64,000 nt of DNA from Methanocella sp. Lineage in GTDB: Archaea > Thermoproteota > Bathyarchaeia > Bathyarchaeales > Bathycorpusculaceae. The stretch spans positions 1 to 64,000 of the forward strand of contig JBLNCY010000053.1 in NCBI GenBank assembly GCA_050261115.1. The letters run 5' to 3'. The notes under the pieces were generated by a model. It saw nothing but the letters and a program-made list of their open reading frames with translations. It was not told the origin of the DNA and made no database searches. The position numbers and the translations under genes are program-made. Positions 47,100-64,000 of the stretch are shown one piece after another; the first letter of the stretch is position 1, and the number at the start of each line of letters is the position of its first letter.

Positions 47100-47593
47100 C
47101 CTCTCCGATTTATTATAGTCGGCTGGTTGTTTTTTCCAAACGGGTTTGCGCTTTTTATCTCATTTTTCAATGTATCTGCGGTTTTGGGGGCAAAAATTAT
47201 CTCAAGGCGGCTAATCAGGTTCTTGTCAACAATTTTTAAATATGTATTGCACGGAAGGAAGCATAATTAATAGTTGCCTAACAGGGGGGCAAGCCTGGCG
47301 GGGCGAGATAGAAGGCTCAAGTGACTCTTAATAGAGCCAGCTATGCCGAATTTATCTTCTTTGCCTCAAAGTTAGGCCACCATTACAAAATAATTTTTGT
47401 TGCAACCGCTATAAATATTTAACGTTAAAATTCACATAACCAAACTGCACTTGTTTCATTTTACTACTTTTTCAACCAAATAACTAATCAAATTTGAGAG
47501 TCCACGACCATCAAACATAAACTGCCCTAATCTACTTTCACCGCTAAGCATCACACCACTCTAACACCATAATTCTTATATCTGTGCTCATCC

Positions 47594-49141
47594 TTGAGAC
47601 TTAGAAGTGACCTTAAATGGGGTATCGCTTTATTCAACCACTTCCCTAAATCCATAAAGTTTTTAGACACCACCCTACGTGATGGCGAACAAACACCCGG
47701 TGTATCCTTAAACGTTGAAAACAAACTGCGTATAGCTCAGAAGCTAGACGAACTTGGCGTAGACGTTATCGAGGCTGGGTTTGCTGCAGTTTCTGAGGGC
47801 GAACTGGAGGCCGTAAGCGCGATTGCACACGCAGGCTTGCGGGCCGAAGTAGCCAGCGCTGGCCGAGGCACCCGCGGCGACATAGACGCGGTTCTCAAAA
47901 GTGGCGCCTCCACCATGAGCATGATCATACCCACCAGCGATTTACACATCGAGTGCAAACTACGAAAAACCCGCGACCAAGTCCTAAAAACAACCGAAGA
48001 CTGCATCACCTACGCCAAAGCCCACGGATTAATAGTGGATCTGCTAGCAGAAGACGCAACCAGATCAGACTTTAACTACCTAGTTAAAGTGTTTCAAACT
48101 GCAGTCGACTGCAAAGTCGATAGAGTAACAGCCTGCGACACCGTAGGCATACTCTCACCAGACCGCAGCTTCCAATTCTTCACCGACCTTGCAGAAAAAA
48201 TAAAGGTTCCAGTCGGCGTGCACTGCCACAACGACTTCGGAATGGCCGTCGCGAACACCATAGCCGCATTAGGTGCAGGCGCAACCGTAGCCCACGCCAC
48301 AGTCAACGGCCTAGGTGAACGTGCAGGTAACGCAGCGCTTGAGGAAATCGCTATCTCCCTTCGAAGCCTCTACAAGCTGGACTTAAACATAAAAACGGAA
48401 CTGCTCTATAGCACAAGCCAGCTAGTCAGCCGACTCACAGGCATACATACTCAACCCAACAAAGCAGTCGTCGGAGAGAACGCTTTCACCCACGAATCAG
48501 GCATCCACACCCAGGGCGTGCTCGCTAACCCCTTAACCTACGAACCCATCGCCCCCGAACTCGTCGGATGCAAACGTCGCATCGCACCTGGCAAACACAG
48601 CGGCACCAACGCCATCAGAAACGACCTCGCAAACATGGGGCTCTCACCAACAGAGGAGCAATTCAAAGAAATCTTTAAACGCATAAAAGAACTCGGCGAT
48701 AAAGGCAAAGCAGTCATGGATGCAGACGTGCTGGCTATCGCGGAAACCGTCATGGGTCTTAGCGGCGAGAAACCAATACAGCTCGAGGAGATCACCTACG
48801 TTGGAGGCAACAAAGTCACTGCTACCGCGTCCTCTAAGCTAAAACTGAATGGCAAAGACGTCTGGGGTAGCGCCATAGGCGTGGGCCCAGTTGATGCTGC
48901 GATCAATGCCGTTAAAGCCGCTATCGGCGAGAATGAGCAGATAACGCTTGAGCGCTATAACGTTAAAGCCATTACGGGCGGAACTGACGCTATGGTTGAA
49001 GTGGTTGTGCATCTTCGGAGGGGTGAGCGGACTGTGACGGCGATGGGCGTCAGAGAGGATATAGTTAAGGCCAGTATAGAAGCGGTCATAAGTGGCATGA
49101 ACGTGCTCAAGACGGATTATAACGGCAAAAAGCCACACTAG
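47594..49141 (+). CDS. 2-isopropylmalate / (R)-citramalate synthase (start uncertain)
   Basis: DTTLRDGEQTPG, HCHNDFG, NGLGERAGNA, HESGIH, C-terminal GPVDA allosteric domain; leuA vs cimA not resolvable by eye. Confidence 0.9.
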   Translation: MRLRSDLKWGIALFNHFPKSIKFLDTTLRDGEQTPGVSLNVENKLRIAQKLDELGVDVIEAGFAAVSEGELEAVSAIAHAGLRAEVASAGRGTRGDIDAVLKSGASTMSMIIPTSDLHIECKLRKTRDQVLKTTEDCITYAKAHGLIVDLLAEDATRSDFNYLVKVFQTAVDCKVDRVTACDTVGILSPDRSFQFFTDLAEKIKVPVGVHCHNDFGMAVANTIAALGAGATVAHATVNGLGERAGNAALEEIAISLRSLYKLDLNIKTELLYSTSQLVSRLTGIHTQPNKAVVGENAFTHESGIHTQGVLANPLTYEPIAPELVGCKRRIAPGKHSGTNAIRNDLANMGLSPTEEQFKEIFKRIKELGDKGKAVMDADVLAIAETVMGLSGEKPIQLEEITYVGGNKVTATASSKLKLNGKDVWGSAIGVGPVDAAINAVKAAIGENEQITLERYNVKAITGGTDAMVEVVVHLRRGERTVTAMGVREDIVKASIEAVISGMNVLKTDYNGKKPH

Positions 49142-50974: not shown

Positions 50975-51607
50975 TTAGATGCCTAGACGTTTTACGTTGT
51001 TGCAGTAAAAGTTATCCAGAATCTTGTGACCTTCAGGATGCATTTCGCTCCCTATCGTGGTGCGTTCGGGGTGGAATTGGACGCCAAAGAAAAGCCTGCT
51101 CTTGTGTTTCACCGCTTCTACCTCGCAAGAAGCCGAATCGGCTAGCAGATTAAATCCTGCGGCTTCCAGCCCCTCCTTTTGAACATAGTCGTTGTGGTAT
51201 TCTGCTAGTGGGACGGTTTGGCCCATTCTAAACCTCGCAAGTATGTCGCCTGTTTGGATTATTCTGACTTGTTCGAATCGGTCGATGACTGACTGCTTTA
51301 GGGCGGCGGTTTTAGCTCCAAATGTTGAGCAGAGCAGTTGGTGTCCAAAGCAGATGCCAAGAAGAGGTACTTTGCAGGTTTGGATGAACTTTGCGACGTC
51401 GTCGTATTTGGCTTTGTCTTGGGGGTTGGTTATGCGTGATTCAGAACCGCTGACGACTACGGCGGCGATGTCTAGGGGCATCTGATAGTTAGCGTCAATG
51501 CTTGTGTATGGAATAACTCTGCAGACGGTAAATTTGCTTAGTGCGTCGCGGAGTTCGTTGATTTGATTTTGATCTTGGTAGCAGTTGATGAGTAGGGTTT
51601 TGGTCAC
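50975..51607 (-). CDS. Class I glutamine amidotransferase
   Basis: PLLGICFGHQ and GVQFHPE catalytic triad. Confidence 0.85.
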   Translation of the reverse strand: MTKTLLINCYQDQNQINELRDALSKFTVCRVIPYTSIDANYQMPLDIAAVVVSGSESRITNPQDKAKYDDVAKFIQTCKVPLLGICFGHQLLCSTFGAKTAALKQSVIDRFEQVRIIQTGDILARFRMGQTVPLAEYHNDYVQKEGLEAAGFNLLADSASCEVEAVKHKSRLFFGVQFHPERTTIGSEMHPEGHKILDNFYCNNVKRLGI

Positions 51608-51610
51608 GGT

Positions 51611-52483
51611 TTACTCCTCGGTTGATTGTAACATCCTATACATTGTCTCATAACTCTTACCGTAGTCCCCGTCAATTTTGGCGAGTTTCTCTCGAAGGCG
51701 ATCCATACGTGCCATGATGCCGGCGGTGTCCTTGCTCTTCATAAGGTCCACCCACTGTTGGGCATTAGCAATAAAGAGGTCTTCGATTTTTTCTAAACCC
51801 GGCACTTTAGTCTGGACGTTAGCGTAGAGGTCGGGGGTTTCCTGAGCGACCGATTCTGCAAGCGTAACAAGCATGCGATAAGTAGTGCCCGCAAGTGTCT
51901 TAGATTCTTTGAATGCTGGTTGCTCTATGAGGGTCTCGCAGGCAGCTAATCCCACAAAATGCGAAAAGCCAAGCACAATGGCCATTAACTCATCATGCTT
52001 TTCGGGTGTCATGATGAAGACATGGGCGCCTTCTTGTTCAAGCCACCGCTTAAACTCTTCAGCATAAGCAGCCTCCTGCGGGTTAGTTGGGGTCAGCACA
52101 TAAGCTTTGTGTGCAACGCCATTGCTGCCCGGCCCAAAAACTGGATGAGTCCCCAAAACCAAAGCATCCTTGAGGTACCTATGCATGACGTCCACGGGGA
52201 ACTGCTTAATTGAACAGATATCCATGATTGGCTGACACTTGTGGGTTGCGGGCGCAATCTTTTTGACGACTTCCTCTAAAGAGGAGATGGATACGCAGAT
52301 AATGACGCGATCAGCGCCCTTCACTGCGGTTGGGAAATCAGCTGTTTCGACGCCCAACTCGTTACCTAACTTTGCAAGTTGCTCTGCGTTCCTGGCTGCA
52401 AGAACGACGGTGTCACCTTTGGCTTTGCAGTATTTTGCAAACCAGACACCCATCTTTCCCGCGCCAAGAACCGCTGTTCTCAT
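51611..52483 (-). CDS. tyrA: Prephenate dehydrogenase
   Basis: GAGKMG, DICSIK, THPVFGP, HDELMA. Confidence 0.92.
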   Translation of the reverse strand: MRTAVLGAGKMGVWFAKYCKAKGDTVVLAARNAEQLAKLGNELGVETADFPTAVKGADRVIICVSISSLEEVVKKIAPATHKCQPIMDICSIKQFPVDVMHRYLKDALVLGTHPVFGPGSNGVAHKAYVLTPTNPQEAAYAEEFKRWLEQEGAHVFIMTPEKHDELMAIVLGFSHFVGLAACETLIEQPAFKESKTLAGTTYRMLVTLAESVAQETPDLYANVQTKVPGLEKIEDLFIANAQQWVDLMKSKDTAGIMARMDRLREKLAKIDGDYGKSYETMYRMLQSTEE

Positions 52484-53568
52484 TGAGCAGCCTCACAGAT
52501 TTTGTCCAAAGCGACCTCTATTTGGTCGTCTGGCGCGGTTAGGCTGATACGGAAGTGCTCAGGGTAGTCGCCGAAGCTTGAGCCTGGAGCAACCGCTACA
52601 CCTTTGTCCAGAAGGTCGAGGGTGAATTTGGTGCCGTCTAGGCCGTCTCGTTTGGGAAAGACATAGAAAGGTGCGTCGGGTGTGGTGAATTTGAATCCTG
52701 CGGCGCTTAGCTTGCTGGTTGCGAGGTCGGCGCGTGCTTTGTATTTGGCTTTTATGTTGGATGCGATTTGGGCGTGGAGTTCTAGGCCTTTTAGGGCTGC
52801 GTCTTGGATGAATACGGGTACGTTGTTGAAGGTGATTTGGTTGAGTTTGACTACTTGGTCGATGTAGGCTTTGTTGGCGACTATGTATCCGACTCGCCAG
52901 CCGGTCATGGTGAAGGTTTTGCTAAAGCCGTTGCTTAGGATGTGTTTGCTGTCTGCGCCGTAGTCTAGGATGCTTTTGGTTTTGTTAAATGCGATCGCGC
53001 CGTAGACTTCGTCGGAGAGTACAGTTATGCCCTTTCTGTTAGCTACCTCGACAACTGCATCTAGGGTTTTGGAGTCCATGGCTTTGCTGGTTGGGTTGTT
53101 GGGGTTGTTTAGTATGATCATTTTTGTTTCGCTATCAATGAGTTCCTCGAGTTTAGCGGGGTCGATTTTCCAGCCTGTCTCCATCTCCGTGGGGAGCAGT
53201 TTGGTTTTGGCGCCGAGGCTCTTAGCGATCAAGTCGTAGGCTGTCCAGTAGGGGGTGGGGATAATGACGTTGCCGCCGTTCTTGAGCATCAAGAACATGG
53301 TGACAAAAATCGCCCACTTGGAGCCAGGAGTGATTATGACGTTTTCTGCTTTGACACCGTGTGACTCAGCGATTTTCTGACGCAGCTTAGCTTCGCCGTA
53401 GCTGGATGAATACTTGGTTTTGCCTGCCTTCATGGAAGCATAGGCTGCTTCGACGATTTCAGGGGGGGTAGCCATGTCTGGGTCGCCGAGGTTTAGTCGG
53501 ATGATCTTTTTTCCTTCGCTTTCTAGTCTGAGTGCTTTCTCGTTTATCTCATAGAGCATAGTTTCCAC
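52480..53568 (-). CDS. PLP-dependent aminotransferase class I/II (aromatic / aspartate)
   Basis: NNPNNPT, SDEVY, SKTFTMTGWRVG. Confidence 0.92.
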   Translation of the reverse strand: METMLYEINEKALRLESEGKKIIRLNLGDPDMATPPEIVEAAYASMKAGKTKYSSSYGEAKLRQKIAESHGVKAENVIITPGSKWAIFVTMFLMLKNGGNVIIPTPYWTAYDLIAKSLGAKTKLLPTEMETGWKIDPAKLEELIDSETKMIILNNPNNPTSKAMDSKTLDAVVEVANRKGITVLSDEVYGAIAFNKTKSILDYGADSKHILSNGFSKTFTMTGWRVGYIVANKAYIDQVVKLNQITFNNVPVFIQDAALKGLELHAQIASNIKAKYKARADLATSKLSAAGFKFTTPDAPFYVFPKRDGLDGTKFTLDLLDKGVAVAPGSSFGDYPEHFRISLTAPDDQIEVALDKICEAAQ

Positions 53569-53584
53569 TCTCCGTTAAGAGTCC

Positions 53585-53845
53585 CTACTCTTGAACGGCA
53601 CTGCACATATTAACTATTTCGCGGTAGAGACGCTCAATCTTGTCAGGATCAAGTTTAAGGAGAAGCGCACGTTCCCTGGCGCGTTTGAAGACTTGGACCT
53701 CTCGGTTTAGGTCCTGTACGGGTTTGCCCTGCTGCTTTTTGAGTTCACCGATGGCTCGGCAAATCTTAACACGGTGAGCTATGCTTCGCAGGATCTGGTC
53801 ATCGGTTGCATCAATTTTTTCTCGTAATTCAGCTAATTCATCCAT
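53585..53845 (-). CDS. Chorismate mutase (AroQ type)
   Basis: LRxKIDxxD...R...IGELK...DxxRE. Confidence 0.9.
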   Translation of the reverse strand: MDELAELREKIDATDDQILRSIAHRVKICRAIGELKKQQGKPVQDLNREVQVFKRARERALLLKLDPDKIERLYREIVNMCSAVQE

Positions 53846-53847
53846 AT

Positions 53848-54954
53848 CTAGTGCTCCTTGAGAACTCGGGGTATCTCTCCTGCTCGGAGGAGGTGATCTA
53901 GGAGGGTTACTGCAACTGCAGCTTCGACCGCTGGCACCGCCTTTGGCACCACACAGGGGTCATGACGCCCCTTCACAGATATCGACGCATTCTCCATCTT
54001 GGTCATGTCAACGGTTTGCTGCTCCTTAGCGATGGAGGGGGTGGGTTTGATGGCGACACGGATTATGATTGGCATACCTGAAGAGAGGCCGCCTAAGATG
54101 CCGCCCGCATTCTCCGTCGCGGTAACAACCTTGCCGCCCTTCATGAGGAACGCATCGTTGTTTTCTGAGCCGCGAAGCTCTGCAGCTTGGAAACCTAAGC
54201 CGAATTCTACGCCTTTGACGGCGGGAACCGCAAAAAGCGCTTTGGCCAAGTCTCCGTCGAGTGTGTCAAATAGAGGTTGGCCCACGCCTATGGGCATGTT
54301 GAGTGCTTGGCATTCGATGACTCCACCAAGGCTGTCGCCTGCTTCTTTTGCTGAGATGATAGCTTGCTCCATCCTCTCTGCGCAGGCAAGATCGGGGCAG
54401 CGAGTGGCTGCTTGGTAGCGGACTTTTTTGATTTCCTGGGCTGAGAGTTTTTTGGTGCTTTTGATGGGGCCGATGGATTTTGTGTAGGCTATTACATCGA
54501 TGTTATAGCGGTTGAGTACCTTTTTGGCGATGACTCCTGCCATGATTAGGGCTACGGTGACTCTGCCGCTGAAGCGTCCGCCGCCCCGGTAATCGTTAAA
54601 GCCTCCGAATTTTATTCGTGCAGGGTAGTCCGAGTGGGCGGGTCGGGGCAAGTCTTTTATGGCTTCGTAGTCGCTTGATTTTGTCTCCTTGTTTTCAACC
54701 ATCACTGCGATGGGTGCGCCTGTGGTGAAGCCGTTAAAGATGCCGCTTAAGAGTTTGGCTTTGTCTTTCTCGATTCGCGGCGAGACGATTCGAGGGTCGG
54801 GGGGGATTCTTCGGTCAAGTTCCTCCTGAAAATCAACCTCCGAAAGTGGCAAGCCCGCTGGGCAACCATCAACGACGACTCCAATCGCGTATCCGTGACT
54901 CTCCCCGAACGTTGTAACTGTGAATTCTTTACCTATCGAGTTTCCCGCCAACAA
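53848..54954 (-). CDS. aroC: Chorismate synthase
   Basis: FGESHG, RPAHSD, GGGRFSGR, KPTPSI, GRHDPC. Confidence 0.96.
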   Translation of the reverse strand: MLAGNSIGKEFTVTTFGESHGYAIGVVVDGCPAGLPLSEVDFQEELDRRIPPDPRIVSPRIEKDKAKLLSGIFNGFTTGAPIAVMVENKETKSSDYEAIKDLPRPAHSDYPARIKFGGFNDYRGGGRFSGRVTVALIMAGVIAKKVLNRYNIDVIAYTKSIGPIKSTKKLSAQEIKKVRYQAATRCPDLACAERMEQAIISAKEAGDSLGGVIECQALNMPIGVGQPLFDTLDGDLAKALFAVPAVKGVEFGLGFQAAELRGSENNDAFLMKGGKVVTATENAGGILGGLSSGMPIIIRVAIKPTPSIAKEQQTVDMTKMENASISVKGRHDPCVVPKAVPAVEAAVAVTLLDHLLRAGEIPRVLKEH

Positions 54955-56218
54955 TGTCAGCTCCTAATTGTTTTATGTGAAGGTAGAACTGCGGATAAGA
55001 CTTTCTGACGCATTCTGCATGTTGAATCGTGGTTTTGCCCTCTGCTCCTAGCGCGGCTACGGCTGCTGCCATGGCGATTCGGTGGTCGTTGTGGGGGTCG
55101 ATGTCTGCGCCCCGGAGGGGTGCGCCTTGGATGGTCATGGAGTCTTCGGTTATGGTGATTTTCGCTCCCATCTTCCCGAGTTCCTCAGAGACTGTGAGAA
55201 GACGGTCGGATTCTTTTAGGCGTAGGCGTCTTGCGCCTGTGATTTTTGAGGTGCCCTCAGCGTAGCATGCGAGAACCGCAATTACGGGCACCAAGTCAGG
55301 GATATTTTTTACATCAACATTGATGGGTTTTAGTGGTGTGCCGGTGCCTGTGATTTCGATGCTGTGGGGGCACACTTTACTTTCAACACCCATCTCTTTT
55401 AGGATCATCAGGATGGCCCTGTCGCCCTGCACTGCTTGATAGTCGAGGTTGTTTATGGTGACTTTTGAGTTTGTGATGGCTGCGGCTGCAAGAAGAAACG
55501 CTGCCGAAGAAAAATCGCCAGGTACGTTGTCATCTGCCGCCTTGTATGTTTGGTTACCCGCAATAAAGATGGCATCATCTTCGAAGGCTACTTCTACTGC
55601 GTGTTTGGATAGAACTGCCTGTGTCATCTTTACATAGTCCACTGATTCAAGCGGGGAAGTGAGTAATATCTGGGTGTCTGCCTCTGCCAATGGGCAAGCA
55701 AACATCAAGCCTGAGATGAATTGGGAGCTTACGTCGCCGCGGATGCTGCATTTACCGCCAACTATCCCGCCGCCCTCCACGTAGACCGCGTCTAAATCGC
55801 CTTCACATCCAACGTGGCCGTTGGCGCCGAGTTCTTTGAGGCTTGCAAGCAACGGTTCTACCGGGCGCCGCTCAAGAGAACCCCTAAACAGCAACGTTGA
55901 AGGCCCATCCGCAAGTGCCGCGACAGGTATCATGAAGCGCAGGGTTGCACCAGATTCGCCGCAGTCGATGGGTTGTTTGGCAGCTTTGGGCTTAGTGCCT
56001 TTGATTATCCAGCAGGCGTCTTCTGCTTGGAATTCTGCACCTAAAGCGGTGACTGCCCGTAACGCCGCCTCGGTATCTTCAGAGTAAAGCGGATTGTAGA
56101 TGTGTGAGGTGCCCTCAGATAACCCGGCAGCTATAACCATACGCTGCGTATAGGACTTTGAAGCAGGAGCAACAACCAGACCAGAGAGTTCTCTGGCCTT
56201 TTTGACCACCATGTCCAT
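54929..56218 (-). CDS. aroA: 3-phosphoshikimate 1-carboxyvinyltransferase (EPSP synthase)
   Basis: SKSYTQR, GESGATLR, SSQFISG, KESDR, DHRIAM, KSYP. Confidence 0.96.
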   Translation of the reverse strand: MDMVVKKARELSGLVVAPASKSYTQRMVIAAGLSEGTSHIYNPLYSEDTEAALRAVTALGAEFQAEDACWIIKGTKPKAAKQPIDCGESGATLRFMIPVAALADGPSTLLFRGSLERRPVEPLLASLKELGANGHVGCEGDLDAVYVEGGGIVGGKCSIRGDVSSQFISGLMFACPLAEADTQILLTSPLESVDYVKMTQAVLSKHAVEVAFEDDAIFIAGNQTYKAADDNVPGDFSSAAFLLAAAAITNSKVTINNLDYQAVQGDRAILMILKEMGVESKVCPHSIEITGTGTPLKPINVDVKNIPDLVPVIAVLACYAEGTSKITGARRLRLKESDRLLTVSEELGKMGAKITITEDSMTIQGAPLRGADIDPHNDHRIAMAAAVAALGAEGKTTIQHAECVRKSYPQFYLHIKQLGADIVGGKLDR

Positions 56219-56221
56219 TGT

Positions 56222-57091
56222 TTAGATCACCTTGGCTTTTTCGCTGTTGAATTGGGTTATCAATACTTCGCCTTCATACTGTTGCAGGGCAACTTTGACT
56301 TTATCAACATTATCTTTGGTGGTTATGGCGGTGACGGTGGGTCCTTTACCGCAAAGCCCTGCAGCAACTGCGCCTGCGGCTAGGGCGTCTATGGCGATTG
56401 TTGGGTTCTGGTTTGATGCGGCAGAATAGACCAACCCGTTTAGGGTCAGGGCTTCCCAGATTTTGCCCTCTATGGCCTTCTCAAACGCCGACTCAACCAG
56501 AGGCTTGATTGTCTGGAGCCGTTTTACATCGCTGTTTATGGTGTAGGCCTTCTGAGGCGGCACATGGAAAAGCACCACCAAATCTTTCGGCAATGGGAAC
56601 TGCTTGAGGATTCGGAGATTCAAGTTATCTGTAACAACTGCGCCGCCAAAGTAGGATGCACAGGCATCATCAAAAGCGCCGGTTATGGTACATTTGGCGT
56701 CAAAAGCTGCCTGTACGCCGAGTTTAACGATTTCTAAATCCGTAAGTTGCTTGCCAAGCGACGCTACGGTCGCAAGAGCGGTTGCATTAGCGGCTACACT
56801 GCTGCTCTTTAGGCCTCGGGCGGCGGGAATGTTCGAAGTTGTGGTAACTTTTGCGCCAACCTCTTTTTCTAAGCCAAACTTTTCTAGTACGCGAAAGACT
56901 GTGCGCTCAACTAGTAGCGGGCTCTCATTGGGATCAGAGGTGATTTTTACGTCAAATACGCCTGCTTCGCCTGTAAGGGTGACTTCTGCTTTTGTCCATA
57001 AATCTACGCCGAATGCTGCCCCATTGCCAAGCGCGATTGCATTCACTATTGTTGCCGCGCCGTGTGCAACTGCCGCTGCTTTTCCCGTCAT
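56222..57091 (-). CDS. aroK: Archaeal GHMP-type shikimate kinase
   Basis: GAATIVNAIA, PAARGLKSSS, TGAFDDA. Confidence 0.93.
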   Translation of the reverse strand: MTGKAAAVAHGAATIVNAIALGNGAAFGVDLWTKAEVTLTGEAGVFDVKITSDPNESPLLVERTVFRVLEKFGLEKEVGAKVTTTSNIPAARGLKSSSVAANATALATVASLGKQLTDLEIVKLGVQAAFDAKCTITGAFDDACASYFGGAVVTDNLNLRILKQFPLPKDLVVLFHVPPQKAYTINSDVKRLQTIKPLVESAFEKAIEGKIWEALTLNGLVYSAASNQNPTIAIDALAAGAVAAGLCGKGPTVTAITTKDNVDKVKVALQQYEGEVLITQFNSEKAKVI

Positions 57092-57951
57092 TGTTTTGCC
57101 TTCTGTAAGTGAGTTAGCGCTGCCTGCCTCATAACTTCGACGGGTGCTGATTTTCCTGTCCAGATCTCAAAGGAGGCTGCACCCTGATAAATCAACATCT
57201 CCACGCCGCTAACGACTTTGGCTCCGACTGCCTTCGCATCTTTTACAAGTTTGGTTTCTAGCGGGTTGTAGATTATGTCCATTACTGAGAGGTTTTTACG
57301 CAGTAACTCGATAGGCACAGGAGTCTCGTCAAAGCGGGGTTTCATTCCGACTGAGGTGGCGTTGATTAGGATATCTGAGTCCTGCAGGTTTACGTCTATG
57401 TCTTCTATTGAGAGCGAACCTGAGACGATTCGTTTGTTTGCGGCTTTCTCTACCAGCCTTGCCAGCGCCTGCGCATCTTTCACAGTGCGGTTTAAAACTG
57501 CGAGTTCGTCGGCTTCTTTTGCGATTGCGTAAGCTATGGCTCTTGCTGCACCGCCTGCGCCAAGCAACAGCACCTTGCGGCCTTTGAGTGGAACTCCGTT
57601 TTCTTTGAGGGCTTTAACTGCGCCGACGCCGTCAGTGTTAAAGCCAAACAGCAAGTTATCCCTGTTTAGGATAGTGTTAACGGAGTCGATTAGCTGGGCC
57701 GATAGGTCGATGCGATCCAGGCTCTTCATGACGGTTTTCTTGTGGGGCATGGTTACGTTTAAGCCACGGATGTTGAGCGCCCGCATGCCGTTAACTGCGT
57801 CCGCTACACGGGATGATTTAACCCGAAACGCTAAATACACATAGTCAAGACCCAACGCTTGAAAAGCGGCGTTATGCATGATAGGGCTTAGCGAGTGCTC
57901 TATGGGGTCACCTATAACAGCACAAACACGAGTTTTGCCCGAAATCGCCAT
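57088..57951 (-). CDS. aroE: Shikimate dehydrogenase
   Basis: HSLSPIMHN, NVTMPHK, NTDG, GAGGAARA. Confidence 0.96.
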   Translation of the reverse strand: MAISGKTRVCAVIGDPIEHSLSPIMHNAAFQALGLDYVYLAFRVKSSRVADAVNGMRALNIRGLNVTMPHKKTVMKSLDRIDLSAQLIDSVNTILNRDNLLFGFNTDGVGAVKALKENGVPLKGRKVLLLGAGGAARAIAYAIAKEADELAVLNRTVKDAQALARLVEKAANKRIVSGSLSIEDIDVNLQDSDILINATSVGMKPRFDETPVPIELLRKNLSVMDIIYNPLETKLVKDAKAVGAKVVSGVEMLIYQGAASFEIWTGKSAPVEVMRQAALTHLQKAKQ

Positions 57952-58638
57952 TTACTGCCCTATCCCTAATAGTTTGTATGCAGTCTTCATATCTTTTATA
58001 CTCATCTGTCCCGCCGCCGTCTGGCTACCGGTCTCTAACGCGGCGAAGGTAAAGAATGCGCCAAAGACAGGGGACAGAAACCGCGAAAGCTTGCCCTGCT
58101 TGCCCATACAGAAGCAAACTAGCTTAGCTTTAGCCGAGGCAAAGGAAACAAAGCTAAGAATTGGCAGGTTATCTTCGATTTGTTTAGCGGTTAAGACGAT
58201 CTTACAGATGTCTGCTCCGATGCTGATTTCCTCATCAAGAACACGCCCAAGCGAGGATACGTCAAGGACGCCGTCGAATTTGTGGTAGGAAACCACGATT
58301 TTCTGGTTTAACTCCTTGAGCTTAGCAATGGTTTGCGCACGGAGGGCGCTTGAAAAGTCAACATCAACAAACGCAAACCCTGCCCTAGCGGCGTCTAGCA
58401 GAGTTTGCTGACGCTCTGCTTCGGAACCGACAAAAAACCCTCCTTCGCTCTGCAGTTTATTGGTTGCTATAAGGGGGAGTTTGGTGCATTTCGGCAAGTC
58501 AGAGAGGCCACGGGGTTCTTCGAGGCAATCCATGCGGAGTTCAACGAAGTCAGCGCCAGCCGCTTCTGCCCTGCCAATGAGGTCTGTTGCTTCAACTGTG
58601 TTTTTGGGGAGAATGGAGACGCAAATCTTTGCGCTCAC
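57952..58638 (-). CDS. aroD: 3-dehydroquinate dehydratase type I
   Basis: ELRMD, VSYH, ICKI, MG..G..SR, AAGQ. Confidence 0.9.
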   Translation of the reverse strand: MSAKICVSILPKNTVEATDLIGRAEAAGADFVELRMDCLEEPRGLSDLPKCTKLPLIATNKLQSEGGFFVGSEAERQQTLLDAARAGFAFVDVDFSSALRAQTIAKLKELNQKIVVSYHKFDGVLDVSSLGRVLDEEISIGADICKIVLTAKQIEDNLPILSFVSFASAKAKLVCFCMGKQGKLSRFLSPVFGAFFTFAALETGSQTAAGQMSIKDMKTAYKLLGIGQ

Positions 58639-59651
58639 TTCTCAATCACCGTTTCATCCGGCACCGAAATGCCAAAGTGCCTGCCGCCCCTCGCCGCGAG
58701 GTGAACGACGACTTCGTCACCCTGCTTTAACTCGGTAACTGGTTTAGAGCCATTGGGGGTAACAACACGGATTGTTTCAGCGTTCTGCAGAATGGTCTTG
58801 ATTGTTTTGCCGTTAACCTCGGCTTCGACTAGGATGAGCGGTCGAATCTCGATTTTTATTCGTCCGACATTGGCCTTGCGCGTTTTCCCTTCTCGGGTGA
58901 CAAGGATGACTTCGTCGCCTGCCTTGAACTCTTGTAGGTAACGCGTCGTCTGGAGGTTGCCTAGTGTGTACATGGAGCAGGAGCCCGCGTTAACCCTAAA
59001 GGGACGAGACGCAACATAGGGGTTCTCACTAACTTCCGCTTCGACAAGGAAGAGACCTGCACTTTGGCTACCGACCAGCATACCTTCGCCGGCCTGCATC
59101 AAGTCACAAGTATCAACGCAGACGCGCGCACCAGTACTGATGGGTCTGGTGCTGACGATTTTGGCGGTGGCCATTTCGAGTTTAAGCGCGTCGGGTTTGA
59201 CGACTTCGACGGTCTTTATGACCTCGTCGGGGTTGTCGGTTTTTAGTAGAACGCCATCTGTGCCAAGCTCTAGCGTTTGGAGGGCGACTTTGGCTTCTTC
59301 GGCGTTATTGACTTCGGCTATGAGTTTGCTTCTACCCTTTATTCGGGCTATGAGGTTCTCAAGGGGAATGACGCGCCAGTTAGCGGTGCTCACAAGGATA
59401 TGGGTTGCGCCTATCTCGGCGGCTTTTACGACTAGGTTTTCGCTTGCTTTGTCGTTTATGCATATGCGCATGACTTTAGCTGCTTTGGCGCTCTCAAGCG
59501 CTGCCTCATCGGCTGGGGATGCCACTGACTGGATTTGGTTGCTAGCGGTAAATATGGCTTTGTCGCCTTCGAGGACTACATCGACATATTGCTTGACAAG
59601 TGACTCAATGGCGTCTTTTTTTGTTTGGGTTTCCAGCCAGAGTTCCTTCAT
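58635..59651 (-). CDS. 3-dehydroquinate synthase II (archaeal AroB')
   Basis: WRVIPLENL, RVCVDTC, RPFRVNAG, LQNAETIR, GRHFG. Confidence 0.93.
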   Translation of the reverse strand: MKELWLETQTKKDAIESLVKQYVDVVLEGDKAIFTASNQIQSVASPADEAALESAKAAKVMRICINDKASENLVVKAAEIGATHILVSTANWRVIPLENLIARIKGRSKLIAEVNNAEEAKVALQTLELGTDGVLLKTDNPDEVIKTVEVVKPDALKLEMATAKIVSTRPISTGARVCVDTCDLMQAGEGMLVGSQSAGLFLVEAEVSENPYVASRPFRVNAGSCSMYTLGNLQTTRYLQEFKAGDEVILVTREGKTRKANVGRIKIEIRPLILVEAEVNGKTIKTILQNAETIRVVTPNGSKPVTELKQGDEVVVHLAARGGRHFGISVPDETVIEK

Positions 59652-60439
59652 GCCTTAACACCCAATATCTTCTCTGCCTGATCAACCGTCGCGTTCTCAT
59701 GCACGATGGCGGACAGGGCTTTTGCTATAGCGGTGGGATTTTCGCATTGAAACACGTTGCGCCCGATTGATAACCCTGCAGCTCCTGCTTTGAGTGCATC
59801 AAAAGTGGTTTGAAGGACTTCTTGGGGGGACTTGCATTTCGGTCCGCCTGCAATCACCACGGGTGCAGGGCAGCTTTCAATGACCTGCTTGAAGCTATCA
59901 ATGCTTCCAGTGTAGTTAGTTTTAATGATATCCGCACCTAATTCTGCACCAATACGGGCAGCGTGAGCAACAACTTCTAATGCATGCTCGTTGGCGATTT
60001 TGGGGCCACGGGGATACATCATAGCAAGAAGGGGCACACCATAGGCGTCGCATTCCTCAGAGACTTTCCCCAAGTTCGCAAGCATCTTATCCTCATCCTG
60101 AGCACCGACGTTAACATGCACGGAGACGGCGTCTGCTCCCAACCGCAGCGCTTCCTGGACGCTGCACACTTGCACTTTGGCGTTAACATTTGGGCTAAGA
60201 TTGGACATGCCGGAGAGCATAACTATTAGGCCTGCGCCGTCGACGTCGATGCGTCGTGCGATGCCTTTGTGTACGAGGATGGCGTCGGCTTTGCCTTTGA
60301 TGAGTTTGTCGGTTATCGTTTGCATGTTACCTATACCCTGGATGGGGCCGACGGTGACACCGTGATCCATGGGCACGATTACGGTTCGGTTATCTTTTTG
60401 GAAGATCTGTTTTAGTCTGCGGGTTTTGCCTTCATTCAT
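59648..60439 (-). CDS. 2-amino-3,7-dideoxy-D-threo-hept-6-ulosonate synthase (archaeal AroA')
   Basis: VPMDHG, GADAVSVHVN, MYPRG, ELGADIIKT, GRNVFQ; adjacent to AroB'. Confidence 0.9.
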   Translation of the reverse strand: MNEGKTRRLKQIFQKDNRTVIVPMDHGVTVGPIQGIGNMQTITDKLIKGKADAILVHKGIARRIDVDGAGLIVMLSGMSNLSPNVNAKVQVCSVQEALRLGADAVSVHVNVGAQDEDKMLANLGKVSEECDAYGVPLLAMMYPRGPKIANEHALEVVAHAARIGAELGADIIKTNYTGSIDSFKQVIESCPAPVVIAGGPKCKSPQEVLQTTFDALKAGAAGLSIGRNVFQCENPTAIAKALSAIVHENATVDQAEKILGVKA

Positions 60440-60452
60440 GCTTCCACTTTCT

Positions 60453-61697
60453 TTAGTGTTTTTTAAGCGCGTTTTTAATTAACTTTAGCGCTTTCTCCTT
60501 CTCGTTCCAATCTACAAAGAGCAGAATACTCGATGTGATAGTGAGGATGCCGCTGATGTTTATGCCGTTGAGCCGTAGGTCTTCGCTGATTTTGCCGATT
60601 ATGCCCTGGGTTTCTTCTAAGCCTACTCCGCTAGTTTTGATAAACACGAGGTCCTTTTTTACGGCCATGGCTATGGTTTCTTTGTTGTTTATCGTTATGT
60701 CGTGGATTTGGTTAAAGAGCTTGCTGATGGTCTCAGTTTGGGGTACGTAGACGATGATGGAGTTAGTGTTCATGGACATGCCGATAAGACTAGTGTTTTC
60801 CTTAACACGCTGAACGATTTCGGTTATGACCTGTGGATTTTTGGACATGCCCTCTCCGATAACCGTGATTTCCGCGACGGGGCCATCATTGGCGATTTCC
60901 GCGTCGAGTTCAGTGGCTAAGCCGCCAGTTATTATGGTGCCGTCTTTGCTTAGGTCATCAAGTTTGTTGCTCATGACTTTGACATCTATATCTTTGGGTT
61001 TGTACTTAAGCGCTTTACTGTGAATGAATTTTGCGCCTGAATCAGCTAAGCCTACTAGGGTGTTGACGTCTATGGTTGGGAGTAGTTTAGGCGATGCAAT
61101 GATTTTGGGGTCACTGGTCATAATGCCTTCTGCGTCGGTGACAAGGACAATCTGGTCTGCTTTAATGCCTAACCCCATCAGAAACGCGGTGGTATCGCTT
61201 CCGCCTCTGCCTAGCGTGGTGATTTTGCCGTCTTTGGTTTTTCCAATGAAGCCCGCTATGACGGGGATGGTTCCTTTCTCGACAAGCGGCAGAATAACCT
61301 GTGAGACGTTTTTCTCACATTCCTCCACCAGTGGGTTGGCGTTTTGGAAGTTGTCGTCTGAGATGATGGGCCACTTGTCATCCATGGGGTCGAAGTAGCA
61401 TGCATCCGCGCCATTGTTGCGTAAAGCGCTGGCAAAGAGGCGTATGCTGGTTCGCTCCCCCATCGAGAGGATGTCGTCTAATTCGTGTTTTGCTAGTTTT
61501 CCATTCGAAGTGTTTTTTGCGGTGGTTAAAAGTTGGTCTGTGGTTTTACCCATAGCTGACACGACGACAGCAAGTTTAGTGCCCTTTTTGGATTCGTTAA
61601 CCACTGCCTTGGCTGCTTTTAGCATCCGCTCGTGATCGGCTAGACTCGAACCGCCGAATTTAACCACCATTTTTTTTATAGAGGACTGTTTTACCAT
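60453..61697 (-). CDS. Aspartate kinase with ACT domains
   Basis: VVKFGGSS, VVSAMG, TTLGRGGSD, C-terminal ACT repeats; ATG at 61697. Confidence 0.93.
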   Translation of the reverse strand: MVKQSSIKKMVVKFGGSSLADHERMLKAAKAVVNESKKGTKLAVVVSAMGKTTDQLLTTAKNTSNGKLAKHELDDILSMGERTSIRLFASALRNNGADACYFDPMDDKWPIISDDNFQNANPLVEECEKNVSQVILPLVEKGTIPVIAGFIGKTKDGKITTLGRGGSDTTAFLMGLGIKADQIVLVTDAEGIMTSDPKIIASPKLLPTIDVNTLVGLADSGAKFIHSKALKYKPKDIDVKVMSNKLDDLSKDGTIITGGLATELDAEIANDGPVAEITVIGEGMSKNPQVITEIVQRVKENTSLIGMSMNTNSIIVYVPQTETISKLFNQIHDITINNKETIAMAVKKDLVFIKTSGVGLEETQGIIGKISEDLRLNGINISGILTITSSILLFVDWNEKEKALKLIKNALKKH

Positions 61698-61721
61698 GTT
61701 GTTTTTACACACCCTTGCTTT

Positions 61722-61759
61722 GCCCAGAACCTTTTTCTAAAAATTTTTTAGTTCTGGGC
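61722..61759 (-). promoter_or_regulatory. Putative attenuator hairpin
   Basis: Perfect 9-bp inverted repeat GCCCAGAAC/GTTCTGGGC with 20-nt A/U-rich loop, starting at the base after the leader stop. Confidence 0.7.
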
Positions 61760-61846
61760 TTAGGAGTAATAGAGGTAATAATAAAAGCCGTAGTCGAAGC
61801 TGCTGATTTGTGCTGCGTTGCCTGTGTTTATGTTGGCATGGGACAT
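61760..61846 (-). CDS. Putative Tyr/Phe-rich leader peptide, 28 aa
   Basis: MSHANINTGNAAQISSFDYGFYYYLYYS: 6 Tyr and 2 Phe in the last 12 codons, upstream of the aromatic operon. Confidence 0.75.
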   Translation of the reverse strand: MSHANINTGNAAQISSFDYGFYYYLYYS

Positions 61847-61875
61847 CTGCTTCGAACCTGCAAATGTGTTTCCGC

Positions 61876-61897
61876 CATATAAATATAAGCGTTTCGG
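61876..61897 (-). promoter_or_regulatory. BRE/TATA promoter of the leader plus aromatic operon
   Basis: Minus strand CCGAAACGCTTATATTTATATG about 30-40 nt upstream of the leader ATG. Confidence 0.65.
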
Positions 61898-62197
61898 GGA
61901 AGCATTTATTTTTGAGCGCCTTCTTGCTTTGTTGCTGCTATGGGCTCTGCGAGTCTCTTGGCTGAGCTTGCCAATTTGGGCGATGTTTTCTGCAGCCGAT
62001 TCGAATGTTTCAGCGATTTCTTCCACGCTGATTTTTTTAGGAGCTGACTGCGGAGGTGACGGCACAAAAGATTCGTCGTTTCCAGTACTCTAGAGGCTTG
62101 TATCAGGTTGTTGGGCCATGGCAAGCCAACTCAGTATAATGCAGGTATTGATTAGTGCTGGGACGTCTTACAAACGACACACAAATAAAGCAGCCAT

Positions 62198-62902
62198 TTA
62201 GGGTTCGATCTTTACTATCTGAGGAATCTTTCCAGCGGTTCCCACTTGACCCTTGTAGAGTATAAACACACCCTCAACGCCCGTTATGGATAAACCCCTC
62301 TCTATTCCCGCACAAATACCCGCTTTAGCATCGCCACCTTTTACCACATTGCCTACCGCTGTTGCTGCTGCGTCGGCTAGGGCAGCGGTTCTGCAGAAAA
62401 CTATGGCTGCCTCCGCATCCCCAAAACTCAAGGCATGACTAAAGCGCCCCGAACTTGTAGCTACCCCCCTCGGAAACTCCGTGAGTCGAAAACCAAAACG
62501 TCTAGAGAGGGGCTCCTCTCCTGCGGCAACAGCGACATCAACTGGCTGGTTTGAATCAGCAGCTATTTCACCCCCGTTCTCCACCACCGCCACCTCACAG
62601 CCCACTCGCTTCATATCAGCAACGGCTAGGTCGGCTATGGCTCCGGCGACCGCCGCCATGGGCCCTACCCCTGCCTCCTGGGCTGCTTCAGTCATCATTT
62701 GGGCGACAAGCGGCTCTTGGGGCACGGGGGTTGGTGTTAATGTGTAGAGAAATTTGGGGTTTGTTCGTACATAGGCCTCTAGTTCTTGGCGGCTGCGGCA
62801 AATAGATGCCTTGGCGGCTTCTATGGCTGCGGGGTTATCTGAGATGACCGTGCATTGAGATTCTTTTATTGTGAAGGCTTCTTTGTGCAGTCCTCGAGTC
62901 AA
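62198..62902 (-). CDS. UPF0280 (ApbE-like) protein
   Basis: VGPMAAVAG, VENGGEI, TSSG..SHALSFG, ALADAAAT. Confidence 0.85.
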   Translation of the reverse strand: MTRGLHKEAFTIKESQCTVISDNPAAIEAAKASICRSRQELEAYVRTNPKFLYTLTPTPVPQEPLVAQMMTEAAQEAGVGPMAAVAGAIADLAVADMKRVGCEVAVVENGGEIAADSNQPVDVAVAAGEEPLSRRFGFRLTEFPRGVATSSGRFSHALSFGDAEAAIVFCRTAALADAAATAVGNVVKGGDAKAGICAGIERGLSITGVEGVFILYKGQVGTAGKIPQIVKIEP

Positions 62903-63336
62903 GCTTGCTTTACCTGGCCATCGGCGGCGTGGTCGTTGCCGTTTGGTTTAACGGATTTTATGGCCCGCGCAGGGCAAGCATCAACGCAGATGCTGCATGA
63001 GCTGCCGAGGCATTTTTCTTTGTCAAACTGAACAGTTTTGTCCTCATCAGTGTTGATGGCTTCCACTGGGCAGAGGGCAACGCAGGTTCCGCAGCTAAAG
63101 CATCGGTCGCTGTTGACTTCAATGAGTTTAGGGACTAATACGCGGATGCCTCTTTTCCGGAAAGCTTCTGCTACTTTGGCTTCCATCTCGTCTGGGACTT
63201 CCACCAAGATTTCCCCGCCCTTGTTGTTGATGTGTGCGGATAGGATTGCCATGGGAACCTTGTATTCGATGATGATTTGTGAAGCGATTGGTTCGGCGAC
63301 TTGTTCCTCGCTAAATCGGATAAATAATCTTCCCAT
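62899..63336 (-). CDS. NIL-domain 2[4Fe-4S] ferredoxin (homocysteine biosynthesis partner)
   Basis: N-terminal NIL-like domain; CFSCGTCVALCP and CLGSSCSICVDACP. Confidence 0.85.
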   Translation of the reverse strand: MGRLFIRFSEEQVAEPIASQIIIEYKVPMAILSAHINNKGGEILVEVPDEMEAKVAEAFRKRGIRVLVPKLIEVNSDRCFSCGTCVALCPVEAINTDEDKTVQFDKEKCLGSSCSICVDACPARAIKSVKPNGNDHAADGQVKQA

Positions 63337-63340
63337 ACCA

Positions 63341-64000
63341 TTACCTCCCCAGCAGCTTGGACACATCCTCAGACGTGATGATGCCCAGCACCTTCTTTTC
63401 TATATCAATCACTGGTAATGCGGATATGTTATGTTGGGCCATGCGTCTTGAAGCAGCCTCAAGCGGTTCATCGGGTCTAGCCGTGATGACGTTGCGTGTT
63501 TCGATGTCCGCTAAAGCCTGTTTGCCCTCGGCCATAGCACGGGTTAAGTCCCATGAGGTCACGATGCCTCTTAGTTTGCCTAATCCATCAACGACGACGA
63601 TGTGGTTTACTGACTTGGTGACTATTCGGTTGGCTATGGCTCGTATGTCTTCGTTTTCCGTGCAGGTTACCGCTGGATGCATAACGGCCACAACGAAGGG
63701 AATTTCCTCAGTTTGCCGCATCGGCCTAAATACAGTATCGGAGGGCAAGCGCTCGATAGGCAAAGTTAAGGTGAAAAGGCCCTGGTCAATCCACATCTTT
63801 AGCGTAGCAGCAACTTTTCTTGCCATCTTTAGGCTAGACAGCGAAGAGACACGTACCTTTTTGCCGTTAACAGTGATTGCGCCTGATTTGAGTTCCTTGT
63901 AGCTGACCCGACCAAGTTTCGGTCTGTCTCTGCGGGGCACACTATAATCGACTATGTCGGTGAATATTTCGCTGTCACGAATGGCTACCTTCTTAGCTAA
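63341..64000 (-). CDS. 3' part of DUF39-CBS homocysteine biosynthesis protein (aspartate-semialdehyde sulfurtransferase)
   Basis: Frame open to the window edge; VDYSVP..RP...SYKELKSG...LSS..A..A..LKMWI followed by a CBS pair; next to the NIL ferredoxin. Confidence 0.85.
   Translation of the reverse strand, partial: LAKKVAIRDSEIFTDIVDYSVPRRDRPKLGRVSYKELKSGAITVNGKKVRVSSLSSLKMARKVAATLKMWIDQGLFTLTLPIERLPSDTVFRPMRQTEEIPFVVAVMHPAVTCTENEDIRAIANRIVTKSVNHIVVVDGLGKLRGIVTSWDLTRAMAEGKQALADIETRNVITARPDEPLEAASRRMAQHNISALPVIDIEKKVLGIITSEDVSKLLGR

Follow-up and report, generated by a model that had tools for sequence, protein, structure and literature searches.

A candidate leader-peptide sensor of tyrosine and phenylalanine supply in front of an aromatic amino acid operon of Bathyarchaeia

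Leader and operon in the window

The stretch of DNA analysed here (the window) comprises 64,000 nucleotides, positions 1 to 64,000 of contig JBLNCY010000053.1 in assembly GCA_050261115.1. It belongs to a 2.15 Mb genome that is deposited as Methanocella sp. and placed in the class Bathyarchaeia by GTDB. We studied a short leader on the minus strand of the window, in front of an operon for aromatic amino acid biosynthesis that begins with an aspartate kinase gene. A first-pass annotation had described a promoter with a transcription factor B recognition element (BRE) and a TATA box, an open reading frame (ORF) of 28 codons with six Tyr and two Phe codons among its last 12, a stem right after the UAA with U5 in its loop, and then AGGGUG and the kinase ATG. 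All of these were read again on the minus strand and confirmed, with the stem counted as 10 bp. The features are as follows, in window coordinates.

61881-61897, minus strand: BRE/TATA promoter, CCGAAAC-GC-TTATATTT, from sequence reading; TATA columns invariant in 70 aligned loci
61856..61860, minus strand: predicted transcription start, placed from the TATA spacing; 5' untranslated region of ~10-14 nt
61849..61855, minus strand: 5' arm of helix P0, UCGAAGC, just 5' of the leader ATG (RNAalifold)
61760..61846, minus strand: leader ORF, 28 codons plus TAA, MSHANINTGNAAQISSFDYGFYYYLYYS; ATG 61846-61844, TAA 61762-61760
61794..61800, minus strand: 3' arm of helix P0, GCUUCGA, in the codons of Ser16-Phe17-Asp18 (RNAalifold)
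61766..61798, minus strand: aromatic codon tract, codons 17-27 (F D Y G F Y Y Y L Y Y), proposed stalling site
61750..61759, minus strand: 5' arm of hairpin P1, GCCCAGAACU, right after the stop codon (sequence reading and RNAalifold)
61739..61743, minus strand: U5 run in the P1 loop (sequence reading)
61722..61731, minus strand: 3' arm of hairpin P1, GGUUCUGGGC (sequence reading and RNAalifold)
61710..61714, minus strand: Shine-Dalgarno sequence (SD) GGGUG of the aspartate kinase gene, 7 nt 3' of P1
60453..61697, minus strand: aspartate kinase, 414 amino acids (aa), first long gene of the operon (Pfam AA_kinase and ACT; NCBIfam NF005159, 386 bits against a cut-off of 379)
50975..60439, minus strand: remaining operon, from 2-amino-3,7-dideoxy-D-threo-hept-6-ulosonate (ADH) synthase to the glutamine amidotransferase (GATase) (Pfam and NCBIfam)

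In hairpin P1, GCCCAGAAC(U) at 61759-61750 was paired with (G)GTTCTGGGC at 61731-61722 over 10 bp, which closed a loop of 18-20 nt. P1 was present in both the minimum free energy and the centroid structure of the window leader. The whole 176-nt leader folded no better than shuffled sequences (z -0.83). For the kinase, besides the ATG at 61697, a GTG at 61712 was a possible alternative start; AGGGTG occupied 61715-61710. The leader frame was open in the 5' direction to a GTG at 62065, giving a 101-aa ORF.

The codon content of the leader was compared with that of the genome. In long ORFs, the codon shares were 3.6% for Tyr, 4.1% for Phe, and 1.2% for Trp. A six-frame scan for ATG ORFs of 10-45 codons gave just two with at least 5 Tyr per 10 codons, and the leader was the sole one in the genome with 6 Tyr per 10 codons. 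It was also the richest in Tyr among the 5839 intergenic ATG short ORFs (sORFs). These results confirmed the leader ORF and placed it far outside what chance would give. The P1 and P0 patterns each occurred once in the genome, and no second copy of the element was found there. In a cmscan of 61000-62600 with E values up to 10, no Rfam leader family was matched and just four chance-level matches were returned. The leader peptide had no match in Pfam or NCBIfam.

The operon was assigned with Pfam and NCBIfam and consisted of 12 genes, running from shikimate to tyrosine. Its first six genes encode aspartate kinase, ADH synthase, 3-dehydroquinate synthase II, aroD, aroE, and an archaeal GHMP-type shikimate kinase. 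The other six encode EPSP synthase, chorismate synthase, chorismate mutase, an aminotransferase, prephenate dehydrogenase, and the GATase. This content was as the first-pass annotation had given it, including the absence of prephenate dehydratase and Trp genes; prephenate dehydratase and trpE were encoded on other contigs, where trpE headed its own operon. The archaeal route to dehydroquinate begins with aspartate semialdehyde, so an aspartate kinase at the head of this operon makes sense.

The prephenate dehydratase gene (PF00800, 225 bits) was located inside an ilv/leu-type operon of the same genome (G000:C57:109802-115930), which begins after genes resembling the acetolactate synthase small subunit and LeuC. 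Its position in a branched-chain operon suggested that Phe synthesis was wired there and not to the aromatic operon under the proposed leader.

Conservation of the leader in relatives

The aspartate kinase was searched with one genome per species. This gave 79 loci, nearly all labelled Bathyarchaeota or Bathyarchaeia and including several Ca. Bathycorpusculum species, and three of them had no upstream DNA. An aromatic-rich sORF was found in 74 of the 76 loci with upstream DNA, and the two without it were both bacterial (WOR-3). The sORF ended 52-88 nt before the kinase match, and 171 nt before it at one locus, L075. It had been suggested in the first-pass annotation that a Tyr/Phe-rich sORF and a stem should recur in related operons. 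They did recur, and with a clear coding signature, as described below.

The window and 69 loci were aligned over the full leader, giving a main family of 70 sequences. The 9 nt before TATA were CCGAAACGC in 52/70. The conserved blocks were, in order, the BRE/TATA; GG-UUCGAAGC, with an invariant ATG 0-4 nt on; then, after ~48 unconserved nt, AGC UUC GAC UAC .. UUU UAU UAU UAC .. UAU UUU CCU UAA; the arms of the hairpin; and GGGUG. The exact P1 pattern was present in 36 of 39 sampled genomes of the genus of the window and in 46 of 103 of its family, and elsewhere in the class the pattern gave just GC-rich, chance-like palindromes.

More distant loci (L066, L070, L072/L073, L075, and L094-L105) shared the same plan with unrelated helix sequences. 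L094-L105 represent a second order, sampled around Ca. Bathyarchaeum tardum. In the distant loci, a helix was predicted between the start region and the leading edge of the aromatic codons. It was accompanied by a strong hairpin (-10.7 to -35 kcal/mol), which began at the stop codon or a few nt from it and preceded the SD. Through these unrelated helix sequences, the deeper comparison supplies the covariation of the predicted helices that is thin in the main family. In the order of Ca. Bathyarchaeum tardum, a leader preceded 14/14 aromatic-type kinase loci, with 47-100% identity to the query; the leader of L103 was weak (5 of 11 codons aromatic). In L092 and L093, the best automatic window was in another frame, and the leader was read from the RNA sequence.

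A paralogous kinase was found 3' of a dapB-like gene at 15 loci (35-39% identity), and these had at most 5 aromatic residues in 12. In the Bathyarchaeia sampled, the predicted leader plan is thus kept only before the aromatic-pathway kinase and not before its paralogue.

L075 (2700-4200) was labelled Methanosarcinales. It carried a leader, a long hairpin, and a 30-codon CxxC...CxxC mini-ORF overlapping the kinase start, followed by the kinase, aspartate-semialdehyde dehydrogenase, ADH synthase, and DHQ synthase II. Among 60 genomes sampled from its order, the matches to its kinase had just 31-34% identity, so that no close relative was found. The genomes of this order were small (0.6-2.7 Mb). 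This suggests horizontal transfer, mis-binning, or a mislabel. The conservation described here is limited to Bathyarchaeia, and none is claimed for the order of L075.

Coding signature of the leader ORF

The main family was inspected for signs of translation. The aligned ATG was in frame with the aromatic run and the stop codon in 69/70 loci, and L071 used a second ATG. This frame was kept although the distance of the ATG from the conserved 5' motif varied by 0-4 nt. The leader ORF occurred in six lengths of 24-29 codons, that is, all insertions and deletions between ATG and stop were whole codons. Those 5' of the ATG and 3' of the stop were not. In the variable N-terminal part, stop codons in frames 0, +1, and +2 were found in 0, 28, and 38 of 69 distinct sequences, respectively. 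The last 13 codons contained 7-9 Tyr, Phe, or Trp in 64 of 68 distinct peptides, compared with a genome-wide share of 8.9% for the three residues, and ~60% of the codons in the 3' third of the ORF were for Tyr or Phe, sometimes Trp. The N-terminal two thirds of the peptide were not conserved. Judged by this strong comparative coding signature, the leader ORF is probably translated. In addition, the leaders of the main family favoured TAT over TAC (185 vs 126), whereas the long ORFs of the genome favoured TAC (2.18% vs 1.39% of codons). The sensing run may therefore favour the wobble-read Tyr codon.

Public RNA-labelled runs were also consulted. Part of the region was covered by 23 such runs and by one more presumed to be RNA, and four runs were examined by contig. 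In the RNA-library run X1, one contig of 1907 nt without differences spanned the kinase, P1, and the Tyr codons to 61826. All it tells is that leader and kinase are continuous in this library, since such contigs carry no end or strand information and RNA libraries can contain DNA. In the four runs, no contig extended over 61834-62040, and contigs of X5 and X6 stopped at 61720 and 61686, although contigs cannot show transcript ends.

These data also bear on an explanation without ribosome sensing, in which the ORF is fortuitous or serves some other purpose. Under it, the element might be a structured RNA (a riboswitch-like or protein-bound leader), a set of DNA operator palindromes, an aromatic micro-protein, or the C-terminus of the 101-aa ORF from GTG 62065. 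The frame is open to 62065 in the window, as the last variant needs. However, the coding signature was confined to the interval from ATG to stop. The 101-aa frame was not conserved; 5' of the ATG, the same nucleotides were in different frames depending on the genome, the spacing between the 5' motif and the ATG was variable, and the BRE/TATA was located inside this frame. The unconserved N-terminal part of the peptide and the lack of Rfam, Pfam, and NCBIfam matches also spoke against this explanation.

Two conserved helices

RNAalifold on the main-family alignment gave two conserved helices, P0 and P1. The structure given in the first-pass annotation was incomplete in this respect, since it included P1 and missed P0. 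P0 pairs UCGAAGC (61855-61849) with GCUUCGA (61800-61794) and so connects the front of the leader ATG with the beginning of the aromatic tract. Standard pairs were found in 98.7% of the helix cells, vs 22-46% when the 3' partners were slid by 1-3 columns. In P0, 99.4% of cells were paired, and all variation was to G.U or a bulge shift. One-sided changes outside the terminal pair gave G.U or U.G in 32 cells and C.A in only 3. This suggests that selection acted on the sense-strand RNA and not on a DNA palindrome.

The P0 and P1 sequences were almost invariant in the main family, as would be the case for the binding site of a factor, and this is in line with the explanation without sensing. The variation to G.U and not C.A argues against its DNA palindromes, and the match between codons and product recurs with unrelated helices and is absent before the paralogous kinase. 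With these points and the coding evidence, we regard an incidental or differently employed ORF as very unlikely.

We concluded that the element is probably a leader-peptide sensor of Tyr/Phe supply for the aspartate kinase/shikimate/TyrA operon. The comparative evidence for a sensor based on ribosome stalling is that the codon content matches the product of the operon, that the ORF has a coding signature, that the plan recurs with different helices, and that it is absent before the paralogous kinase. The interpretation offered in the first-pass annotation was thus partly supported; it was right in kind but wrong or incomplete in mechanism.

Ribosome position and its possible readout

The spacing of the elements was measured in the main family. 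P1 started directly after the stop codon in 59/69 loci and was 38 nt long in 50/69. The distance from P1 to the SD was 7 nt in 56/69 loci, and the SD was GGGTG in 50/69. The first base of the last aromatic codon was 9 nt before P1 in 60/69 loci. In 5 loci the final codon was aromatic, and there P1 was displaced and the distance was 11 nt. Bacterial and eukaryotic footprints indicate that a ribosome reaches ~12 nt past the first base of the A site. With a gap of 9 nt, a ribosome stalled in the run would leave P1 essentially intact, and a ribosome with the stop codon in the A site would cover the whole P1 5' arm. It had been proposed that stalling on the Tyr/Phe codons keeps the 5' arm unpaired. 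The geometry indicated the opposite.

At the other end of the leader, the first T of TATA was 30-34 nt before the P0 arm in 68/70 loci. With the usual archaeal spacing between TATA and start, transcription would begin at 61858 or a few nt to either side, ~12 nt 5' of the ATG. The P0 5' arm would be the extreme 5' end of the mRNA.

Alternative structures were sought in the same alignment. When any arm of P0 or P1 was masked, RNAalifold predicted no conserved alternative helix in the 70 sequences. An extension of the stem over AGGGUG by an anti-SD, another proposal of the first-pass annotation, was also evaluated. It was predicted in 34/69 loci, but in 46/69 when the last five codons were shuffled. 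The extension was therefore not specific, falling below the codon-shuffled control, and it was rejected.

The readout could be translational attenuation of the mycobacterial poly-Cys type. In a leader free of ribosomes, the U-rich aromatic tract would pair, across the P1 base, with the A-rich region where translation of the kinase begins, forming a clamp. A ribosome parked on the tract would free this region, and low kinase translation would lower the operon through polarity. In the main family (n=68), 9.4 pairs were predicted between the tract and the initiation region, vs 2.9 with N-terminal codons substituted and 6.5 with bases shuffled. When a ribosome was placed on the tract, the kinase AUG became more accessible (unpaired probability 0.58, compared with 0.33 without the ribosome), and so did the SD (0.47 vs 0.36). 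The sign of this effect is right, and the clamp would account for the contact of P1 with the stop codon on one side and the SD on the other. A precedent is described by Canestrari et al. (10.1101/834739). However, the pairing was absent in 13 distant lineages, where 6.2 pairs were obtained for the wild type and 9.0 for both controls. The unpaired probability there was 0.43 vs 0.42, and the accessibility of the SD did not follow ribosome position. The folding with a masked ribosome that the first-pass annotation had suggested thus gave an opening of the AUG in the main family but no signal in the distant lineages, and no SD/AUG accessibility switch by ribosome position was common to both groups. 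RNAalifold found no conserved third helix, and pairing of the tail with the SD was no better than for codon-shuffled tails. Moreover, limiting repeated translation of the leader, as P0 would do, makes more sense for a decision taken once during transcription than for translational control at steady state. From this balance, translational control is rather unlikely.

A further feature was ~30 nt of single-stranded, U/A-rich RNA between P0 and P1. This stretch is a point for control through mRNA stability, in which a stalled ribosome would shield it from endonucleases, or the mRNA from 5'-to-3' exonucleases, so that the operon mRNA lives longer under starvation. Such control would resemble the stabilisation of ermC induced by erythromycin. 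The stretch is enclosed by two stable helices, P0 is located at the predicted extreme 5' end, and the genome encodes two more beta-CASP paralogues. This explanation needs no alternative helix or U run and fits all lineages. However, it leaves unexplained why P1 adjoins the stop codon exactly, why the last aromatic codon keeps a distance of 9 nt, and why the 3' side of P1 is U-rich. Control through mRNA stability was considered improbable.

U-rich RNA and proposed output

U runs were examined next to the hairpin. A T run of at least 5 was present in the P1 loop of 56/70 main-family loci, and among the 62 main-family loci with a run of at least 4, 57 had its end 34-38 nt 5' of the kinase start. 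P1 was followed by AAAGCA or AAACAC in the window and the main family; the U run was in the loop, and there was no hairpin followed by a U run. In the distant lineages, the RNA from the P1 3' half to the SD was U-rich in 12/12 (mean 49% U, 72% pyrimidine), the P1 5' half was purine-rich with 15% U, and some lineages had a hairpin and then U4-U6. That the structure gates oligo-U termination, as the first-pass annotation suggested, is possible, but not in the bacterial form, since the U run is enclosed by the stem instead of following it.

In the genome of the window, T5+ was found after 43% of 789 gene ends vs 17% of 755 gene fronts, and ~6-8% was expected from the coding sense strand. This enrichment is as expected if oligo-U marks terminators in this genome. 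A-tracts are poor TATA boxes and 7 loops had no T run, so an internal promoter in the A/T-rich P1 loop is unlikely.

The genome also encoded an orthologue of the termination factor aCPSF1/FttA (TIGR03675, 902 bits; cut-off 580), together with the two beta-CASP paralogues. FttA has been shown to bind U-rich RNA and to thread the nascent transcript, in single-stranded form, directly out of the exit channel; position -23 is best occupied by U, and positions -30 to -36 by U-rich RNA (PMC11616081). KH domains of aCPSF1 bind the U-tracts of terminators (PMC8716108).

Based on these observations, we tentatively propose an output with one hairpin, in which P1 acts as an anti-terminator. Every step is inferred, and the proposal is possible but somewhat short of an even chance. 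When charged tRNA-Tyr or tRNA-Phe is scarce, the ribosome would stall in the aromatic run and stop short of P1, which would fold once its 3' arm is made. The folded P1 would enclose a U-rich stretch, that is, the loop U run in the window and the U/C-rich 3' arm with a U run in distant relatives. With this stretch hidden, the polymerase would continue, and a ribosome could load at the nearby kinase SD. When Tyr and Phe are plentiful, the ribosome would reach the stop codon and its footprint would cover the P1 5' arm. P1 would be open, and the U-rich RNA behind the polymerase would be single-stranded and a substrate for oligo-U or FttA/aCPSF1-dependent termination, so that transcription of the operon drops. 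P0 would shut the leader start after the first transcription-coupled ribosome, making the decision a one-shot one. We infer an inverted logic, in which the hairpin is the anti-terminator and the single-stranded U-rich RNA is the terminator, the reverse of the bacterial arrangement. The general statement that Archaea use ribosome-mediated attenuation of this kind, where completion of the leader unmasks a terminator and Tyr/Phe starvation leaves it masked, is more doubtful.

Several points weigh against the sensor or its proposed output. The main-family sequences came mostly from one genus; the 70 leaders are thus close kin and not independent. Covariation within this family was thin, with 3 pairs showing double changes, and 5/500 shuffles reached the observed pairing. 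The X1 contig joining leader and kinase could derive from DNA in the library. A leader free of ribosomes also folds P1, so that the default would be ON unless the leader is translated frequently. From simple polarity, a ribosome that is stalled and uncoupled would be expected to favour termination by FttA, which is the wrong sign unless P1 shields the RNA. T runs of at most 3 were found in 7/70 main-family loops, which meant that the U run was not essential everywhere, and the asymmetry of U content across P1 was weak in the main family (19% vs 27%). The FttA geometry is that of Thermococcus and may not hold in Bathyarchaeia.

Comparison with known attenuators

In the enterobacterial attenuators pheL-pheA, trpL, and hisL, the short first ORF is rich in codons for the end product. 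The leader studied here resembles them in its short first ORF, in the enrichment of product codons, and in the position of the sensing codons near the 3' end. As in these systems, one helix arm would be covered only by a ribosome at the stop codon, and the leader start would be sequestered after the first round. It differs in being archaeal and in its predicted near-leaderless start from a BRE/TATA, and no mutually exclusive terminator and antiterminator hairpins were found. In place of a hairpin-plus-U-run terminator, it has U5 in a loop, and oligo-U or FttA termination would act instead. The element does not belong with the classical bacterial attenuators, because there was no alternative helix, no U run after P1 in the window, and no Rfam match. 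It would rather be a ribosome-read amino acid sensor of Archaea with a non-bacterial architecture.

Regulation by termination factors offers a second comparison. tnaC of the E. coli tna operon and mgtL are Rho-dependent and sense free Trp or Pro/Mg, respectively, and in tna a stall at the stop codon turns expression on. As in tnaC and mgtL, the position of the leader ribosome would decide the access of a termination factor to RNA by the leader stop. Unlike in those systems, expression would be switched off once the leader has been completed, and the factor would be FttA/aCPSF1.

Leader-peptide attenuators in general, and the leaderless poly-cysteine sORFs of mycobacteria (Ms5788A class), are described in 10.1101/834739; in the Ms5788A class, the SD of the following gene is the pairing partner of the tract, and regulation is at the level of translation. 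The leader studied here shares with this class a tract at the 3' end of the first sORF and the absence of competing hairpins; its sORF is predicted to be near-leaderless, and a stalled ribosome would likewise act by occupying the RNA. In contrast to the Ms5788A class, pairing of the tract with the initiation region was predicted just in the main family here, and a strong hairpin and a 5' helix were conserved. In Thermococcus kodakarensis, TK0271 is reported to be a DNA-binding transcription activator of aromatic amino acid genes (PMC6737238). TK0271 would thus also control archaeal aromatic biosynthesis operons, but the leader would act in cis as a translated RNA.

Neighbouring genes and other candidate leaders

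Directly 5' of the leader and on the same minus strand, 62198-64000 encoded HcyBio+CBS, NIL+4Fe-4S ferredoxin, and PRK04334-family proteins. The HcyBio/NIL genes presumably belong to the homocysteine pathway of archaea, for which aspartate semialdehyde is likewise the starting point. Two pathways consuming aspartate semialdehyde would thus flank the aspartate kinase.

The first-pass annotation had suggested a genome-wide scan for leaders rich in other amino acids. A crude scan of sORFs rich in single residues gave no convincing case of another amino acid-specific leader in this genome, which does not prove absence. A similarly crude scan of the same genome for an sORF and hairpin before genes gave 222 candidates, and none of the top 45 inspected was convincing. 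No leader sORF was found at the fronts of trpE and pheA.

At G000:C16:10360-10450 (minus strand), no start codon (ATG, GTG, or TTG) was found in the TrpE frame 5' of the conserved LLESIEGP region, as far back as the previous stop. A 28-codon ATG ORF (MIKMGNHLWQ...) in another frame overlapped the TrpE frame across several A runs, which could be an assembly frameshift or something more interesting. At G000:C59:1976-2071 (plus strand), a 31-codon sORF ending in ...HYAFYYYDEQF was located 25 nt 5' of a 349-aa protein with a CxxxCxxC-type, radical-SAM-like N-terminus, and a second such gene followed. It is possible that this sORF is the precursor of a ribosomal peptide with its maturase rather than a leader. 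In the window, a gap of ~500 nt (47100-47593) with a TATA-like CTATAAATATTT preceded a gene resembling 2-isopropylmalate/citramalate synthase (47594-49141). A G-rich stretch at 47280-47340 in the gap might fold. The last 190 nt of the gap contained no ATG and therefore no leader peptide.

Significance

In the literature searched, leader-peptide attenuation is a bacterial device, and archaeal amino acid operons are controlled by DNA-binding proteins. A full-text search returned no description of leader-peptide attenuation in Archaea, in agreement with the first-pass statement that it is not well demonstrated there; subscription journals were poorly covered, so this is not proof of absence. The annotation of uncultured Bathyarchaeia would improve with this element, whose sORF is too short for gene callers. 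At ~170 nt, the leader is also a compact test object for the interplay of the archaeal polymerase, FttA/aCPSF1, and the ribosome. If the proposed reading is true, Archaea would also let the ribosome gauge the supply of charged tRNA, and would do so without the terminator/antiterminator pair of bacteria.

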